Assembly: GCF_016903815.1 (NCBI RefSeq)
Contig: NZ_CP069973.1
Length of the DNA: 64,000 nt
Origin: Escherichia coli
GTDB lineage: Bacteria > Pseudomonadota > Gammaproteobacteria > Enterobacterales > Enterobacteriaceae
Reading direction: 5' to 3' (one strand)
The position numbers are program-made. This document shows positions 41,101 through 47,100 of this stretch, piece after piece. Position 1 is the first letter of the stretch, and each line of letters starts with the position of its first letter.

Positions 41101-44100
41101 CACTCTTCATCTGCTTTTCCTTGATGCTATAGGGGTGCTGAGACCGATAACGCATTTTGTAAACCATCCCTGTGAGAGCGAATATTCCGATATCTGGTTA
41201 TTAATTTATGATTCTTGTTTTATGTGATCGTGGTAGCGTTAATTCCGCTCATATATCATTGTAAAATATGGGTTTTATATGAATTATAATGCTTTCGTGA
41301 TAATACGCTGCGTGTATTAGGCGGAAAAAACTGATCTGGGGGATGTAGAAACTCAAGGAAGTAGCTATAATGCGCCCCGCCTCCATGTAGCAATCGAGGC
41401 GCGGAAGATCGTCGTCTCCGGTGAGGCGGCTGGACTTCAAATCCAGTTGGGGCCGCCAGCGGTCCCGGGCAGGTTCGACTCCTGTGATCTTCCGCCAGTT
41501 TACCTCTTCTGAACTCTCCCAATGTCAATAAATCTCTTCTAATCCCTTGTATATCAGTATTTATTTGTATCCAGAGGTCAACCTACTTCACCCCGTATCA
41601 AGTTTCTTTTGGGGGTACTTTAGGGGGTGTTATTTCCTATTGAAATACCAGCACCCCCATAATAGGAAAAATATGATATATAACAACGGCTTTTAACAAC
41701 ATCTTTGTTATACAAGGGGTGTATTGGGGGTATCAGGTTAGTTACTGGCAGAAATCCCCCTCAGGAACATGAATTCATCAAAAGCCGGAGGATGTCATGG
41801 CATTAACCGATATCAAAGTGAAAACCGCAAAACCCAAAGACAAACCCTATAAGCTTGCTGATGGCGGCGGTATGTATCTACTGATTAACACTAATGGTTC
41901 TAAATACTGGCGCATGAAGTACCGCTTTGCTGGTAAAGAAAAGATGCTTTCTATTGGCGTATACCCCGATGTAACGCTAGCCGATGCTCGCGAGAAACGC
42001 AGTGAAGCCAGGAAACTCCTCGCTGCTGGAGGCGATCCAGGGGAGGCAAAAAAGGAAGAAAAAATCGCGCAGCAAATGAGTCTGCAAAATACGTTCGAGG
42101 CTATTGCTCGCGAATGGCACCAGTCAAAAGCCGATCGGTGGTCATTACGCTATCGTGATGAAATCATTGATACCTTTGAAAAAGACATTTTTCCCTACAT
42201 TGGCAAGCGCCCTATTGCCGAAATCAAACCAATGGAGTTACTGGAAGCACTGCGTAAAATGGAAAAACGTGGAGCTCTGGAGAAAATGCGCAAGGTCCGC
42301 CAGCGCTGTGGTGAGGTGTTCCGCTATGCAATTGTTACTGGCCGGGCAGACTATAACCCAGCCCCCGATCTTGCCAGTGCTTTAGCTACACCGAAAAAAG
42401 TACATTTTCCCTTTCTTACTGCTAATGAACTTCCCCACTTCCTCAACGATCTGGCGGGTTATACCGGAAGTATAATCACTAAGACAGCTACTCAGATCAT
42501 TATGTTAACCGGCGTACGAACACAAGAACTGCGTTTTGCACGCTGGGAAGATATCGATTTTGAGACAAAATTGTGGGAGATCCCGGCAGAAGTAATGAAG
42601 ATGAAGCGACCTCATATTGTGCCGCTCTCTGAGCAGGTCATTATGCTATTTAAGCAGCTTGAACCAATCTCAAAACATCATCCCCTAGTCTTTATCGGTA
42701 GAAATGATCCCCGCAAACCAATTAGTAAGGAAAGCATTAACCAAGTAATTGAATTACTTGGATATAAGGGAAGACTCACAGGGCATGGTTTCAGACACAC
42801 CATGAGTACAATTCTGCATGAACAAGGCTTTAATTCCGCCTGGATTGAAATGCAGTTAGCTCATGTGGATAAAAATTCCATCAGGGGTACCTATAATCAT
42901 GCCCTGTATCTCGATGGCCGCCGTGAAATGATGCAATGGTACGCTGATTACATTGATTCACTCTCCAGCCGGGAAAGTTAAGTCAAAAATACTTTTCCCT
43001 GATGTTTTCCTCAATTAAGTATTTTATCCTCTGGCCTACAAGGCTGGAGGATTTTTGTTATTATATTATTTTTTGCGTCTTCAAACTTATTACAAAAACA
43101 TAATTAAAAGCAAATTGACATTTTTAAATTGGCAATTACAAAATACAGCCTTGCAGTTATTTCGATACCTTTAGCAAAGGAAAAGTTGATTCAGATATAA
43201 TTTAGCATTTCAATCATCTGACATCATTATAAAAAATGAGATTCACATAAAGATAAAATTATTGTTCTCAAGGAAAGCATGAAGGGGCTTTGTAAGCAAT
43301 ATTCATTCAGTGCCAAGACAGGACTTGATACACAGAATCTCAACTTTTATGCTCTCAGACTATATCACCACATGTTTTACAGGCTCAGAAAATGAACGAT
43401 AGATTATGCTTTGAAGTGCACGATAACCAGGGTTATTTCGTATTTCCGGATACCTGGTTTGGCCCATTGCTGGGGGAGTTTGAAGAAGTGCTTGATGCAT
43501 ACGACGCTGATGAAATCAGCGAGACGAGTTACATCAACAAACTCCGACGCCTTGCTCAACGGGAGCCGGACTTTATTGATATACACGCTCATCTGGCATA
43601 TGCATTTCTGGAACAGAATGCCCCGCGTAAGGCACTGAACGCCGCTCTTAAAGGACTGGCGGCAGGTAATCGTATCATCCCGGAAAGTTTCTGTGGTGAA
43701 ATAATCTGGATGCATCCCGAAAACCGGCCTTATCTGCGCGCGCTTTATGCAGCAATTCTCGCAAATGTGCACTTACAGCGCCATCAGGATGCGGTTATGC
43801 TCACTGATAAAATACTGGCATACAATCCTGAAGATAATCAGGGGGCTCGCTGGTTGTTGGGTTCAGAGCTGTTACGCACCGGCGATCATGAGCGAGCCTT
43901 CAGTGTACTGAAAGAGCATGCTGATGAATTTTCACCTTACTGGTATGAACTCGGTCTCCTGCATTTTCTGAACGGGGAACATGTTAAGGCCGCCACAGCT
44001 TTTCGCCATGGCTTTGCCACAAACACTTACATCGCAGAAATGCTGTGCGGAAATCTGCATCCATTTCCACTTGCTGTGTGGCATGACTTCTCCGGCTCTC

Positions 44101-47100
44101 TGGATACGGCAGAAGATTACTATGCAACATACTCACCATTATGGGGACAATATCCGGAAGCATTGCTGTTTGTAAACTGGCTCTATAATCATTCCTCTGT
44201 GCTGCATGAACGGGCAGAAATCATTAAATGCGCCGAAATGCTGATGCAGGAAGATGATTTCGAAATATGCGAAAGTATTTTAAGACAGCAGGAGAAGTTG
44301 CGTGAAAGAATTGATGAGACGCTTTCTGAAAAAATTGTACAGAAATGCAGAAATATGAATGGTGAATATGTCTGGCCCTGGATATTGCCGTTTTCAGCGG
44401 CAGGCATGAAACATACTGGCATACAGTATCAGTAGATATTGCATTAGTGTATCCTGCACACAAGTAATAATTTATCCACCAATAATAACACTGTTAATGT
44501 CCCCTTCCCCTGGTTGTCAGCCAGGGGTTATCTTCTGAATATTTCTTTTGAAAAGGATAACACAGTAAATTATTTTTATGAATTATCCCATGGACTCATT
44601 AACACCCTTTCATAATGCTTTATTGTCAAACACGTTATGGCTGACATCAAAAAAAACCGGATTTCCTCTGCCAGCGGGTAATCACCTTCCCGGTGTTTTC
44701 GGTTGGTCTGGTTACTCCTGTCTGGTTATTAGCAAGATAATTGCTATAAACAGTGGAAAACTCATCGTACATAATCTGGTGATGAACATTACGCTTATTT
44801 TCCCTTGACCGGAAGAATCAGAGGCTGTGGTTTCAGTCATACAGTCCATCTCCTTTAATCGGAGTTGGCTCTTTCCCTGGCCGTATACGGCGAACAGATT
44901 CTCGTATTACCAGTTTCCCATACAAAAGTAATGCACCAACAGTTGCATCAGGACGTACAAGTCTTTGTTGTAACATATGTACCGCTTCAGTACCCAGTTC
45001 ATCGCGAGGTACATGTACTGCCGTAAGTGGCACATCTTCTATTGCAGCCAGATTAAACCCATCAATACTCATTACGGACACATCTTGTGGCACTCGTATA
45101 TTACGTTTTTTTAAAGCGTTAATTATACCTGCAGCAATGAAGTCCCCACTTGCCAAAAAAGCAGTCGGTAGCATACTTTTCTCTGTCATATCCAGCCATG
45201 CTCCGACTTTTTCTTCGGCTTCTTTGGCGCTGAAACTATTAATAGTGAGTAAATCTCTGTCATCTTTAAAGTTCTGATTCTGTCTCTCCCATGCTTCTTT
45301 AATTCCGGCAAGTCGCAGTTCCATTGTGTATCGACGTAAACACATAATGTTCATTACTCTGCGATGCCCCATTTCAAACAGAAAGTGAGACGCAAAAGCA
45401 CCAATGTTTTTGTGATCTGGAGCAACTGTGGGAAGACGCATACGTCGATCATGGCAGTTAATCATTACGCACGGCTTAGAAAAATCTGCTGCAAGATCAT
45501 GTATATGAGGATCATCAATACCAAGCAATATTGCAGCCTGTGTTTCTGCCTCATTCATGCGCGCCAGGAATTTTGAAGGTGTACTATCGAACTCATCAAG
45601 GGCACAGTAACGCAACCGAACCTCATAATGCGATAATGCCTTGCTGATGCTTTGGATTACGCGGAAATAAAAAATGTCTGTTCGCTCATCAAAAGCCCGT
45701 TGAGGAGCAAAAATGACAAGGTTGTTTAACAACATACGGCCGGATGCCATTCCATCCATAACCCCAAGCTCTCTGGCACACGCCAATACTTTCTCGCGGG
45801 CACGATAACTGGTATTAGCTTTACCCGCTAAAACCCGTGACACGGTGCTGGATGAAAGGCCTGTTCGCATGGCAATATCAGCAATCTTTAGTTTTTTTTC
45901 CATATTGTGATCTATCTCTAATTTCAAAATGAAAAAATTCTCATGGGATGGAATAGCCTGACTGCAAGGACTTCTGACTATTTTTAGAATTTATATGAAC
46001 TACTTATGAAAAAACGTGCACAATACCAACTTTTTTTCATCGCCCCCCTCTTTTATTGTGAATGAGTAGTTCCGGTTTAAGTATTAAGCCGAAAGGTAAA
46101 GTGGGATGTGGCAACCCCGAGCTGCGTTGTCGCTCGATCATTTATTACATCCGGTGGGGTGATTATGAGTCAGGATATAAATAATAATATAGCTGTCAGC
46201 AAACACCGTCGAATAATAAGACAACTACGGTGGTGGATGTTAATCCTTTTTCTAATGGGTGTCACTGTCAATTATATTACCAGAAACTCATTAGGTATTT
46301 TGGCACCAGAGTTAAAAGACAGCCTTGGAATTACAACTGAACAATACTCCTGGATTGTTGGTGGATTTCAGCTTGCATATACCCTTTTTCAGCCACTTTG
46401 TGGATGGCTAATTGATGTTATTGGGCTCAAGATTGGATTTATGATTTGTGCTTCATTATGGGGAATTGCTTGTCTTCTGCATGCAGGAGCAGGAAGCTGG
46501 ATACAGCTTGCGTTGCTTCGTTTTTTCATGGGAGGTGCTGAGGCTTCTGCGACACCTGCAAATGCAAAAATTATAGGTGAGTGGTTTCCAAAATCTGAAC
46601 GTCCTGTTGCTGCTGGCTGGGCGGGTGTCGGTTTTTCTATCGGTGCAATGCTTGCACCACCAATTATTTACTTTGCACATGCGTCATTTGGTTGGCAGGG
46701 TGCATTTATGTTTACAGGTGCACTTGCAATTCTTTGGGTTTTCCTTTGGTGGGCGTGTTATAACACACCAGAAGAGCACCCAAACTTAAGTAAAAATGAG
46801 CTCAACTTTATCCGACAGGATAACGAAGCTCCTCCGGTAAAAATGCCTTTTCTGACCGCGTTAAAAACAGTTAGTAAAAATAAACGCTTTTATGGAATCG
46901 CTATCCCTGCATTTATGGCAGAGCCAGCATGGGCTGTAATGAGCTTTTGGGTGCCATTATATCTTGCAAAAGCATATGGCATGGACCTTAAACAAATAGC
47001 TCTGTTTGCATGGTTACCATTTCTTTGCGCTGATTTAGGAAGTATTGCCAGCGGATATCTGACAAAACTCTATACCCGTCTGTTTGGGTTAAGCAGAGTA

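Follow-up and report, generated by a model that had tools for sequence, protein, structure and literature searches.

The closest described relatives of the gene considered here are ShiA, encoded on the SHI-2 island of Shigella flexneri, and the SisA and SisB proteins of uropathogenic Escherichia coli (UPEC), for which published identities to S. flexneri ShiA (347 aa) amount to 96.8% (SisB) and 83.3% (SisA). ShiA-type genes have been described with a length of 1,044 bp, 347 encoded residues and 97% identity (PMC13340028, PMC3256949), and the first 2877 bp of selC islands are reported to be common to SHI-2 of S. flexneri, 'including shiA' (PMC6174562). A dampening of host inflammation has been attributed to shiA and sisA/sisB (Ingersoll 2003, 2006 and Lloyd 2009, in the accounts given by PMC7545054, PMC13340028 and PMC4229854), and shiA, sisA and sisB serve as virulence markers in Shigella, UPEC, enteroaggregative E. 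coli (EAEC) and those E. coli producing Shiga toxin (STEC) that are negative for the locus of enterocyte effacement. Here we analyse an open reading frame (ORF) at positions 43392-44435 of a 64,000-nucleotide stretch of an E. coli genome (contig NZ_CP069973.1 of assembly GCF_016903815.1; hereafter the window), which an initial annotation, made from the sequence alone, had described as an orphan helical-repeat protein encoded immediately downstream of an integrase. Our comparisons identify this ORF as a shiA/sisB allele of the ShiA/SisA/SisB family and hence as a gene that is already known, named and studied (ShiA of SHI-2; SisA/SisB of UPEC). The analysis yields one correction, namely that the product is not a quinone reductase, and two leads: homology to the Tcf25/Rqc1 domain and a transposon form in which a shiA-like gene is coupled to a resolvase gene. 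Both leads open the mechanism of ShiA to experiment, with the homology representing a testable lead on a known gene.

The published primer pair for shiA (sisA-F with sisB-R, 292 bp; PMC3256949, PMC2978726) matches the window exactly: the sisA forward primer lies at 43614-43633 (plus strand) and the sisB reverse primer at 43880-43905 (minus strand), which together give the published amplicon of 292 bp. The reverse primer specific for sisA does not occur in the window and is found in the pheV and pheU copies, which are 85% identical. The closest AlphaFold DB models of the window protein are named 'ShiA homolog' or 'ShiA-like protein'; from the primer matches and these names, we therefore conclude that the window carries a ShiA/SisB-type allele. 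Amino acid identity amounts to 96% with the S. flexneri protein cluster (P0001) and to 85% with the SisA-type cluster (P0006), identity to ShiA being judged by way of cluster P0001, the primers and the published lengths rather than by direct alignment to AF141323. Further full-length homologues range from this 96% down to approximately 25% identity in protein searches, 91 clusters (at the 50% identity level) match the window protein with E<=1e-30, and RefSeq lists it as WP_000999850.1, 'tetratricopeptide repeat protein'. By megablast, at least 80% of the region 43000-44600 is found in 659 of the 5426 complete E. coli genomes and a partial match in some 2300. The description of the gene as an orphan and a singleton thus has to be abandoned. 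Expression has also been reported within the family, with shiA induced anaerobically in Shigella RNA-seq data (PMC4229854) and sisA expressed in the urine of patients with urinary tract infection (PMC2978726), so that the absence of expression named in the initial annotation as grounds for refutation does not apply.

Comparison with the two described types shows where the window belongs. With ShiA of S. flexneri SHI-2 and SisB of UPEC CFT073, the window protein shares 96-97% amino acid identity, the same length and the same position as first gene after the CP4/P4-type integrase at selC; SHI-2 differs in carrying aerobactin genes, whereas the window holds a sugar cluster of LacI-family regulator, major facilitator superfamily (MFS) transporter and glycoside hydrolase family 31 (GH31) genes, as does the selC island EPI-I of avian pathogenic E. 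coli. SisA, found at pheV/pheU in UPEC and in the LAA (Locus of Adhesion and Autoaggregation) island of STEC, is 85% identical, of the same length and likewise encoded first after a P4-type integrase. However, sisA loci retain an intact convergent phosphoethanolamine transferase gene of which the window has only a relic, and they exhibit an integrase of a different lineage (41% identity) together with a different promoter region, such that homology to the window begins 17 bp before the ATG.

The ShiA/SisB product has a mass of 40.2 kDa, a pI of 5.1 and Leu/Ala/Glu contents of 11.5/9.8/9.2%, and no signal peptide, hydrophobic or transmembrane segment was detected in the window protein (maximum Kyte-Doolittle value 0.75). 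Its AlphaFold2 model (56-sequence alignment; pLDDT 95.1, pTM 0.90) shows a beta-hairpin at residues 6-17, followed by 16 helices that end at residue 315; behind them come a small beta element and a tail that is disordered and not conserved. This model indicates a soluble, cytoplasmic, all-helical solenoid of the tetratricopeptide repeat (TPR) type without a catalytic domain, in agreement with the Leu/Ala/Glu-rich, helical and cytoplasmic protein that had been anticipated. Foldseek searches against the PDB returned TPR solenoids only (CTPR, MamA, OGT) plus Rqc1, and the best query TM-score (0.54) belonged to the solved Tcf25-domain chain of Rqc1, ahead of the other TPR proteins. At the sequence level, Pfam gave weak TPR-type matches for the window protein (ANAPC3 at 1.9e-4, TPR_2 at 0.06) and phmmer against PDB sequences gave EMC2 at E 0.1 only, while the family profile found consensus TPR proteins at 3.9e-30; by profile and fold together, the protein displays the tandem 34-residue helix-turn-helix repeats of canonical TPR proteins. 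Given these TPR matches and the published gene, the statement that no motif could be assigned to a known family also falls, whilst the characterisation as a helical-repeat protein of uncharacterised molecular function still holds.

Across the 56 aligned sequences (24-85% identity), invariant or near-invariant residues are distributed along the full length of the protein. They include the motifs NRPFLRA (N111, R112, P113), NPxDNxGxR (D148) and YPPYxYEL, followed by AATxLRRGFxxNPYIAE (R205, N211, Y213), FLxWLFNHSxVLxERA (E273, R274) and a C-terminal PW (W330); this degree of motif conservation appears to go far beyond that of a generic repeat scaffold. Longer relatives showed generic TPR matches only as additional domains, apart from a single fusion to an ABC transporter (P0186), which has the appearance of a gene-call artefact.

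These results bear directly on the historical annotation of ShiA as a quinone reductase/NADPH oxidoreductase-like enzyme or transporter, statements from Moss et al. 1999 that are repeated in PMC6174562 and PMC7545054. Pfam and NCBIfam assign the window protein neither an oxidoreductase nor a transporter domain, the protein has no transmembrane segment, and the confident all-alpha solenoid, with only TPR proteins and Rqc1 as structural neighbours, exhibits neither a Rossmann nor a flavodoxin fold. We thus regard the historical annotation as almost certainly wrong: the label 'quinone reductase' or 'transporter', still repeated in reviews, is contradicted by the fold prediction and should be dropped. 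A match to a housekeeping enzyme, the other ground for refutation that had been named, was found neither in Pfam nor in the structure searches.

Two further classes of TPR protein were considered and rejected. Rap/RRNPP-type receptors (RapI of ICEBs1, Rap of pLS20) resemble ShiA at the generic TPR level only, with ShiA exhibiting neither an N-terminal three-helix bundle or helix-turn-helix (HTH) domain nor a cognate peptide gene; this assignment was rejected because the small ORF downstream of shiA is antisense to the transferase relic and because the HTH domain is missing. TPR chaperones of type III secretion systems (T3SS; SctY, and SycD/LcrH of class II) are recognised by a score above the curated cut-off, a length of approximately 110-170 aa, three TPRs and a T3SS locus: here, the SctY model scored 27.7 bits against a cut-off of 70 and covered only residues 122-206 of a 347-aa protein, and no T3SS operon accompanies the gene.

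The relationship to Tcf25-domain proteins emerged through intermediates. Pfam Tcf25 (PF04910) matches 12 of the 56 family members at E<=0.1 and three at E<=1e-3 (best 5.4e-7), and the distant member P0222 matches it at 2.6e-13 (50 bits; model positions 27-221 of 337). P0222 is a member of a large bacterial family (approximately 268 aa) in which nearly all members are PF04910-positive, some being named 'Transcriptional repressor TCF25' in UniRef; hhalign comparison of the ShiA-family alignment with that of the ~268-aa family gave a probability of 100% and an E-value of 9.6e-42 over 259 columns, corresponding to ShiA residues 6-265. Because of this chain, from Pfam matches on members through P0222 and the ~268-aa family to the profile-profile alignment, transitive homology links the two groups and we consider the ShiA family very probably homologous to the Tcf25-domain superfamily (PF04910; TCF25/Rqc1). 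The literature that we searched contained no link of ShiA or of bacterial proteins to TCF25.

Two results weigh against this placement. The window protein itself gives no Pfam Tcf25 match even at E<=10, and neither the family profile nor its sub-profiles (residues 200-335 and 1-125) ever retrieved Rqc1 from the PDB sequences; the N-terminal sub-profile (1-125) is dominated by a canonical TPR at residues 49-92. The Rqc1 Tcf25 domain has been described in a preprint as comprising ~336 residues with one small beta-sheet; its three best-conserved residues are N423, D461 and P531, with N423 contacting the strand residues Y327/F329. F16, N111 and D148 of ShiA are separated by 95 and 37 residues, compared with 94 and 38 for F329, N423 and D461 of Rqc1, which is an agreement in spacing only.

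Like ShiA, the Tcf25 domain (PF04910, formerly DUF654) is a TPR-like solenoid, similar in size (~335 aa), and in both one small beta element forms the beginning. ShiA differs in standing alone, without the polybasic N-terminal region and RING-binding helices of TCF25/Rqc1, and in having its own C-terminal extension of ~70 residues (266-335); the cellular setting also differs, since we know of no Listerin or ubiquitin in E. coli. The bacterial ~268-aa family (Methylomonas, Desulforhopalus, Candidatus Kentrum) displays the same motifs, IPxxFxWxxxxxEWGxLxNRPFLRA and PNDNxGVRYLL, and likewise occurs in accessory regions with toxin-antitoxin (TA), restriction-modification and transposase genes, but is shorter, does not have the ShiA-specific C-terminal extension and has no known phenotype. 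In Desulforhopalus, a GTPase of the MMR_HSR1/RsgA type adjoins the Tcf25-like gene (L049 1023-2995; same strand, 84-bp gap), and a YeeP-like MMR_HSR1 GTPase gene adjoins, in divergent orientation, a 63%-identical ShiA homologue in E. coli (L041-L044); this may be a recurrent pairing or a coincidence.

TCF25 and Rqc1 are non-enzymatic scaffolds: TCF25 binds Listerin's RING domain and orients the acceptor ubiquitin (PMC12047659), the C-terminal domain of Rqc1 binds Ltn1's RING domain and ubiquitin (PMC12215860), and acceptor-ubiquitin orientation leads to K48 chains (PMC12047659, PMC12215860). Placement in this superfamily offers the first concrete biochemical hypothesis for ShiA, that of a scaffold positioning a partner, possibly a ubiquitin-like (Ubl) one, and it names residues to mutate. 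In the mechanism that we favour, with moderate confidence in the package as a whole, ShiA would have no enzymatic activity and would serve as an adaptor, binding a partner protein and positioning it by means of a surface that may be formed by the family-invariant polar residues N111-R112-P113, D148, R205, N211/Y213, E273-R274 and W330. The primary partner would be bacterial or encoded by the mobile element, and inflammation in the host would be dampened indirectly, through what ShiA alters in the bacterium. A bacterial or element-encoded partner is favoured because the family is common in non-pathogens and the gene shows no disease association in EAEC, where it was found in 35% of case and 36% of control isolates (PMC3256949), and because the family is spread over islands, plasmids, minimal transposons and environmental bacteria, as described below.

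Some findings speak against such an adaptor. No partner protein for ShiA was identified, and across 34 loci compared by a six-frame approach there was no neighbour conserved family-wide, only lineage-specific blocks (integrase; resolvase/Tn3; HipA/HipB-AbiEi-ParB). The invariant polar residues could be structural rather than ligand-binding, by analogy with what has been proposed for N423/D461/P531 of Rqc1, and the in vivo inflammation phenotypes (Ingersoll 2003, 2006; Lloyd 2009), as relayed by the citing papers, fit direct action on the host equally well. A more specific version, in which ShiA, SisA and SisB grip and orient a small beta-grasp partner, be it the ubiquitin of the host during infection or a Ubl or other partner supplied by the bacterium or the mobile element, is put forward tentatively and we judge it rather doubtful. 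If true, Ubl-type partner binding would explain an anti-inflammatory phenotype that is 25 years old, and the family would represent a prokaryotic branch, borne by mobile elements, of a protein thought of as eukaryotic.

The same homology invites the explanation that ShiA is a host-directed TCF25 mimic, which would reach the host cytosol by secretion or lysis, bind ubiquitin and/or a RING E3-E2 pair, skew the formation of ubiquitin chains in innate immune signalling and thereby lower inflammation directly. The ubiquitin-handling activities of TCF25 and Rqc1 (PMC12047659, PMC12215860) and the anti-inflammatory phenotypes published for mutants in shiA and sisA/sisB, which PMC7545054, PMC13340028 and PMC4229854 cite, are consistent with such a role, and Shigella possesses other effectors acting on the ubiquitin system, for example OspI (PMC4229854). 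However, TCF25 binds RING through helices (aa 188-202) that precede its Tcf25 domain on the N-terminal side (PMC12047659), in a region that ShiA does not have, and the gene is also present in E. coli REL606, a laboratory strain, and equally frequent in EAEC cases and controls, as given above. The protein furthermore exhibits neither a signal peptide nor a hydrophobic segment, and the family, present on transposons too, is frequent in genera such as Rhizobium, Methylobacterium, Paracoccus, Sphingobium and Verrucomicrobium. To our knowledge, UPEC CFT073 has no T3SS, which also counts against this explanation. Taken together, we consider direct mimicry in the host unlikely and retain the adaptor with a bacterial or element-encoded partner. 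A caution follows for the use of the gene as a risk marker: the family is found on plasmids, on minimal transposons and in bacteria from soil and plants, and 35-42% of E. coli possess it regardless of disease. Because of this wide distribution, the label 'inflammation suppressor' may reflect a side effect of a function in mobile elements.

The locus itself agrees with its first description: the ORF and its flanking features are real, and the gene is the integrase-proximal first cargo gene of an islet at a tRNA gene. Gene order around selC is yicI, yicJ, tRNA-Sec, integrase, shiA/sisB, LacI-family regulator, MFS transporter and GH31 glycosidase, and the islet measures approximately 9.5 kb, with shiA/sisB at its integrase-proximal end and the LacI/MFS/GH31 sugar-uptake cluster as remaining cargo. 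The features in window coordinates are:

37400-39718, minus strand: yicI, intact in the window
39728-41167, minus strand: yicJ
41403-41497, plus strand: tRNA-Sec gene (selC), island integration site (ARAGORN)
41474-41489: attL core TTCGACTCCTGTGATC, core repeat as quoted in PMC6174562, single copy in the window
41797-42981, plus strand: P4/CP4-type tyrosine integrase, 394 aa (ORF; RefSeq 'tyrosine-type recombinase/integrase')
42982-43391, plus strand: intergenic region of 410 bp, 69% AT, from the integrase end to the shiA/sisB ATG
43026-43052, plus strand: terminator-like hairpin of 12 pairs behind the integrase gene, followed by TTTTTGTTATT
43115-43144 (10/12 matches), 43325-43353 and 43376-43405, plus strand: sigma-70-like sites, consensus matches only
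43375-44836, plus strand: shiA cassette as recurring elsewhere, from 17 bp 5' of the ATG to the stop codon of the LacI-family gene
43392-44435, plus strand: shiA/sisB-type gene, 347 aa, 1,044 bp, ATG start; predicted cytoplasmic TPR-like solenoid, very probably of the Tcf25-domain superfamily
44507-44527, no strand assigned: GC-rich hairpin CCCCTGG-TTGTCAG-CCAGGGG between shiA and the convergent-gene relic
44578-44808, plus strand: 76-aa ORF, RefSeq 'hypothetical protein' WP_001323853.1
44595-44790, minus strand: phosphoethanolamine transferase relic (sulfatase family), C-terminus aa 488-554 of 557, with in-frame stops and a frameshift
44833-45927, minus strand: LacI-family regulator

A second copy of the selC core repeat, which would mark attR, was searched for in the window and not found. 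The 12-pair hairpin behind the integrase gene is strong and directly followed 3' by a T run, and no clear Shine-Dalgarno sequence was seen in the 25 nt upstream of the shiA/sisB ATG. Downstream, the CCCCTGG-N7-CCAGGGG hairpin occupies the position of a putative bidirectional terminator. The relic behind it, situated in the ~400-bp tail of the cassette, was recognised by tblastn of the L002 gene product against window positions 44436-45000, and other islands hold the intact parent gene, in convergent orientation to sisA. Being antisense to this relic, the 76-aa ORF is probably not a gene but an annotation artefact. In E. coli strain 510016 (L001 8955-12719), yicI is interrupted by an IS150 insertion.

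Breakpoints of the region were surveyed by megablast over the 5426 complete E. coli genomes. The whole islet is present in 331 of them; in others, selC, integrase and shiA are common up to position 44836 and are then followed by a phosphoethanolamine transferase gene. Many genomes share only 43375-44836, a block that begins 17 bp ahead of the start codon and is placed behind other integrases; some possess the integrase of the window but no shiA, homology stopping at 42965, 43082 or 43398; in several E. coli islands of the latter kind, the end at 43082 falls just beyond the hairpin 43026-43052. Comparison with a sisA locus (window 43375-44760 against L002 7984-9370) gave 83.6% nucleotide identity, whereas the 394-aa integrase upstream of shiA and the 421-aa integrase preceding sisA at pheV/pheU are only 41% identical. 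Because the integrases are 41% identical and ShiA and SisA 85%, the cassette has moved between integrase lineages. It is a self-contained unit comprising the ORF, hairpin and transferase relic, with breakpoints at the borders of the ORF.

A second mobile setting, absent from the window, where a tyrosine integrase precedes the gene, was found on plasmids of Klebsiella, Morganella, Yersinia ruckeri, Edwardsiella and Pseudomonas amygdali. Here, a shiA-like gene is located between the genes for a Tn3-family transposase and a serine resolvase, and in all five genera its TGA stop overlaps the tnpR ATG as ATGA, which couples the two genes in translation. The element of Klebsiella pCAV1344-40 (L011 2785-7657; 4.87 kb) holds only tnpA, the shiA-like gene and tnpR, and that of Morganella (L010 54-5330; 5.28 kb) one extra ORF of 90 aa; both minimal elements are bounded by terminal inverted repeats of 55-65 nt. 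Tn3-embedded passengers in this sense are the 49-57%-identical relatives (L010-L013, L053; elements of 4.9-5.3 kb bounded by inverted repeats). The block of res region, shiA-like gene and tnpR shows 88-94% nucleotide identity across six genera with differing transposase genes, and TA modules have been described as the only other occupants of the slot between res and tnpR (Lima-Mendez et al. 2020, PMC7157771). On plasmids of Klebsiella, Morganella, Yersinia, Edwardsiella, Serratia and Pseudomonas, the shiA-like gene thus takes the same slot as the Tn3-embedded TA modules, is co-oriented with tnpR and is exchanged together with it, but it is a single gene for a 340-aa TPR protein rather than a two-gene pair and encodes no toxin-like domain. 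The ATGA-coupled shiA-like/tnpR operon therefore adds a second kind of passenger to a slot of Tn3-family transposons formerly described only for TA pairs.

This arrangement raises the question of whether ShiA is an accessory of recombination modules, which would bind or regulate the adjacent site-specific recombinase, be it a tyrosine integrase or a serine resolvase, or its DNA complex or stabilise the element in the manner of Tn3-embedded TA pairs. The overlap with tnpR, the three-gene Klebsiella element, the exchange of res, shiA-like gene and tnpR as a unit in six genera, the slot shared with TA modules (PMC7157771) and the position directly after P4-type integrases at selC, pheV and pheU would all fit such a function. 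Yet these two classes of recombinase are unrelated, and the movements of the cassette are independent of the integrase, which also occurs without shiA. In addition, no recombinase lies within 7-8 kb of many family members, such as those of Alphaproteobacteria, an E. coli IncF plasmid and L041-L045. We consider a recombination accessory improbable, and the adaptor with a bacterial or element-encoded partner remains our preferred explanation.

Beyond E. coli, a profile search of genome contigs using a 16-sequence alignment identified 26 loci in mostly environmental taxa, including Rhizobium, Agrobacterium, Methylobacterium, Paracoccus, Sphingobium, Verrucomicrobium, Myxococcota and Acidobacteria; the habitats of the family include those of soil, water, plant and fish bacteria. 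Family members were also found on 75 plasmids from 13 genera, and a phage origin is not supported, since none of 50,697 phage records gave a match to the family. In many high-GC genomes (L014, L020-L023, L025, L026, L028-L030, L032, L039), the ShiA homologue fails a coding filter based on GC content at third codon positions (GC3); because the surrounding genes pass it, the homologue appears compositionally foreign to its host.

The initial annotation had pointed out that integrase-proximal singletons on tRNA islets are frequently regulators, anti-defence or defence genes, and this expectation finds no decision in our data: family members travel with mobile elements and are placed in accessory regions or regions resembling defence islands, and the searches of defence models and phage records returned nothing. 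One form of this idea is that ShiA is an anti-phage defence or anti-defence protein of mobile elements, for instance an inhibitor sequestering a host defence component, possibly a bacterial ubiquitin-like conjugation system. A binding protein without an effector would suit an inhibitor, as would the integrase-proximal location on tRNA islets, the handling of ubiquitin by the Tcf25 domain in eukaryotes (PMC12047659) and neighbours that include WYL regulators, TA modules, AbiEi-like, ParB-like and anti-restriction genes, a methyltransferase with ResIII and a restriction endonuclease. PADLOC-DB v2 models, in contrast, gave 0 families for the window protein at E<=1, none of the 50,697 phage records matched, there is neither a conserved partner gene nor an effector domain, and no gene for a ubiquitin-like, E1 or E2 protein was located beside a family member in the loci examined. 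A role in defence or anti-defence is thus highly unlikely in our view.

Several observations were made on individual loci of the family. In five loci from unrelated taxa (L020, L022, L023, L026 and L030: Methylobacterium, Myxococcota, Pannonibacter, Agrobacterium vitis and Oryzicola), the ShiA homologue is directly followed by a collinear block encoding HipA-like (410 aa), HipB/Y4mF-like (133 aa), AbiEi-like (247 aa) and ParB-like (712 aa) proteins, evidently one widely transferred segment of a plasmid or integrative and conjugative element. A small protein of the WGR-domain type is encoded within ~2 kb of the homologue in four further loci (L014, L018, L019 and L036: a Rhizobium plasmid, a betaproteobacterium, Rubrivivax and Paracoccus). 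The 3.5-kb contig JAIJJM010000323.1 (L015), from a metagenome-assembled genome of 'Collinsella sp.' (Actinomycetota), contains part of an integrase and a shiA gene that shares 97% identity with that of E. coli, and is most likely E. coli DNA mis-binned into the Collinsella assembly.

In the remainder of the window, IS1 transposase ORFs in inverted orientation, at 50460-50963 (minus strand) and 56973-57476 (plus strand), flank yicL, nlpA and genes resembling T3SS components, and the selC islet ends on its right side at the first of the two. A translocator chaperone of the SicA/SycD type (150 bits) is encoded behind yicL and nlpA, which are core genes, at 53962-54459 (plus strand), followed at 54707-56488 (plus strand) by a 593-aa protein with distant likeness to SipB/IpaB-type translocators (106 bits against a cut-off of 828); both genes lie in a stretch of ~39-41% GC and look like an isolated T3SS remnant. 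Beyond the second IS1 ORF, an inverse-autotransporter adhesin of 2161 aa (IatC/intimin-like) is encoded at 57487-63972 (minus strand), in DNA with a GC content of 56-62% that is unusually high for E. coli.

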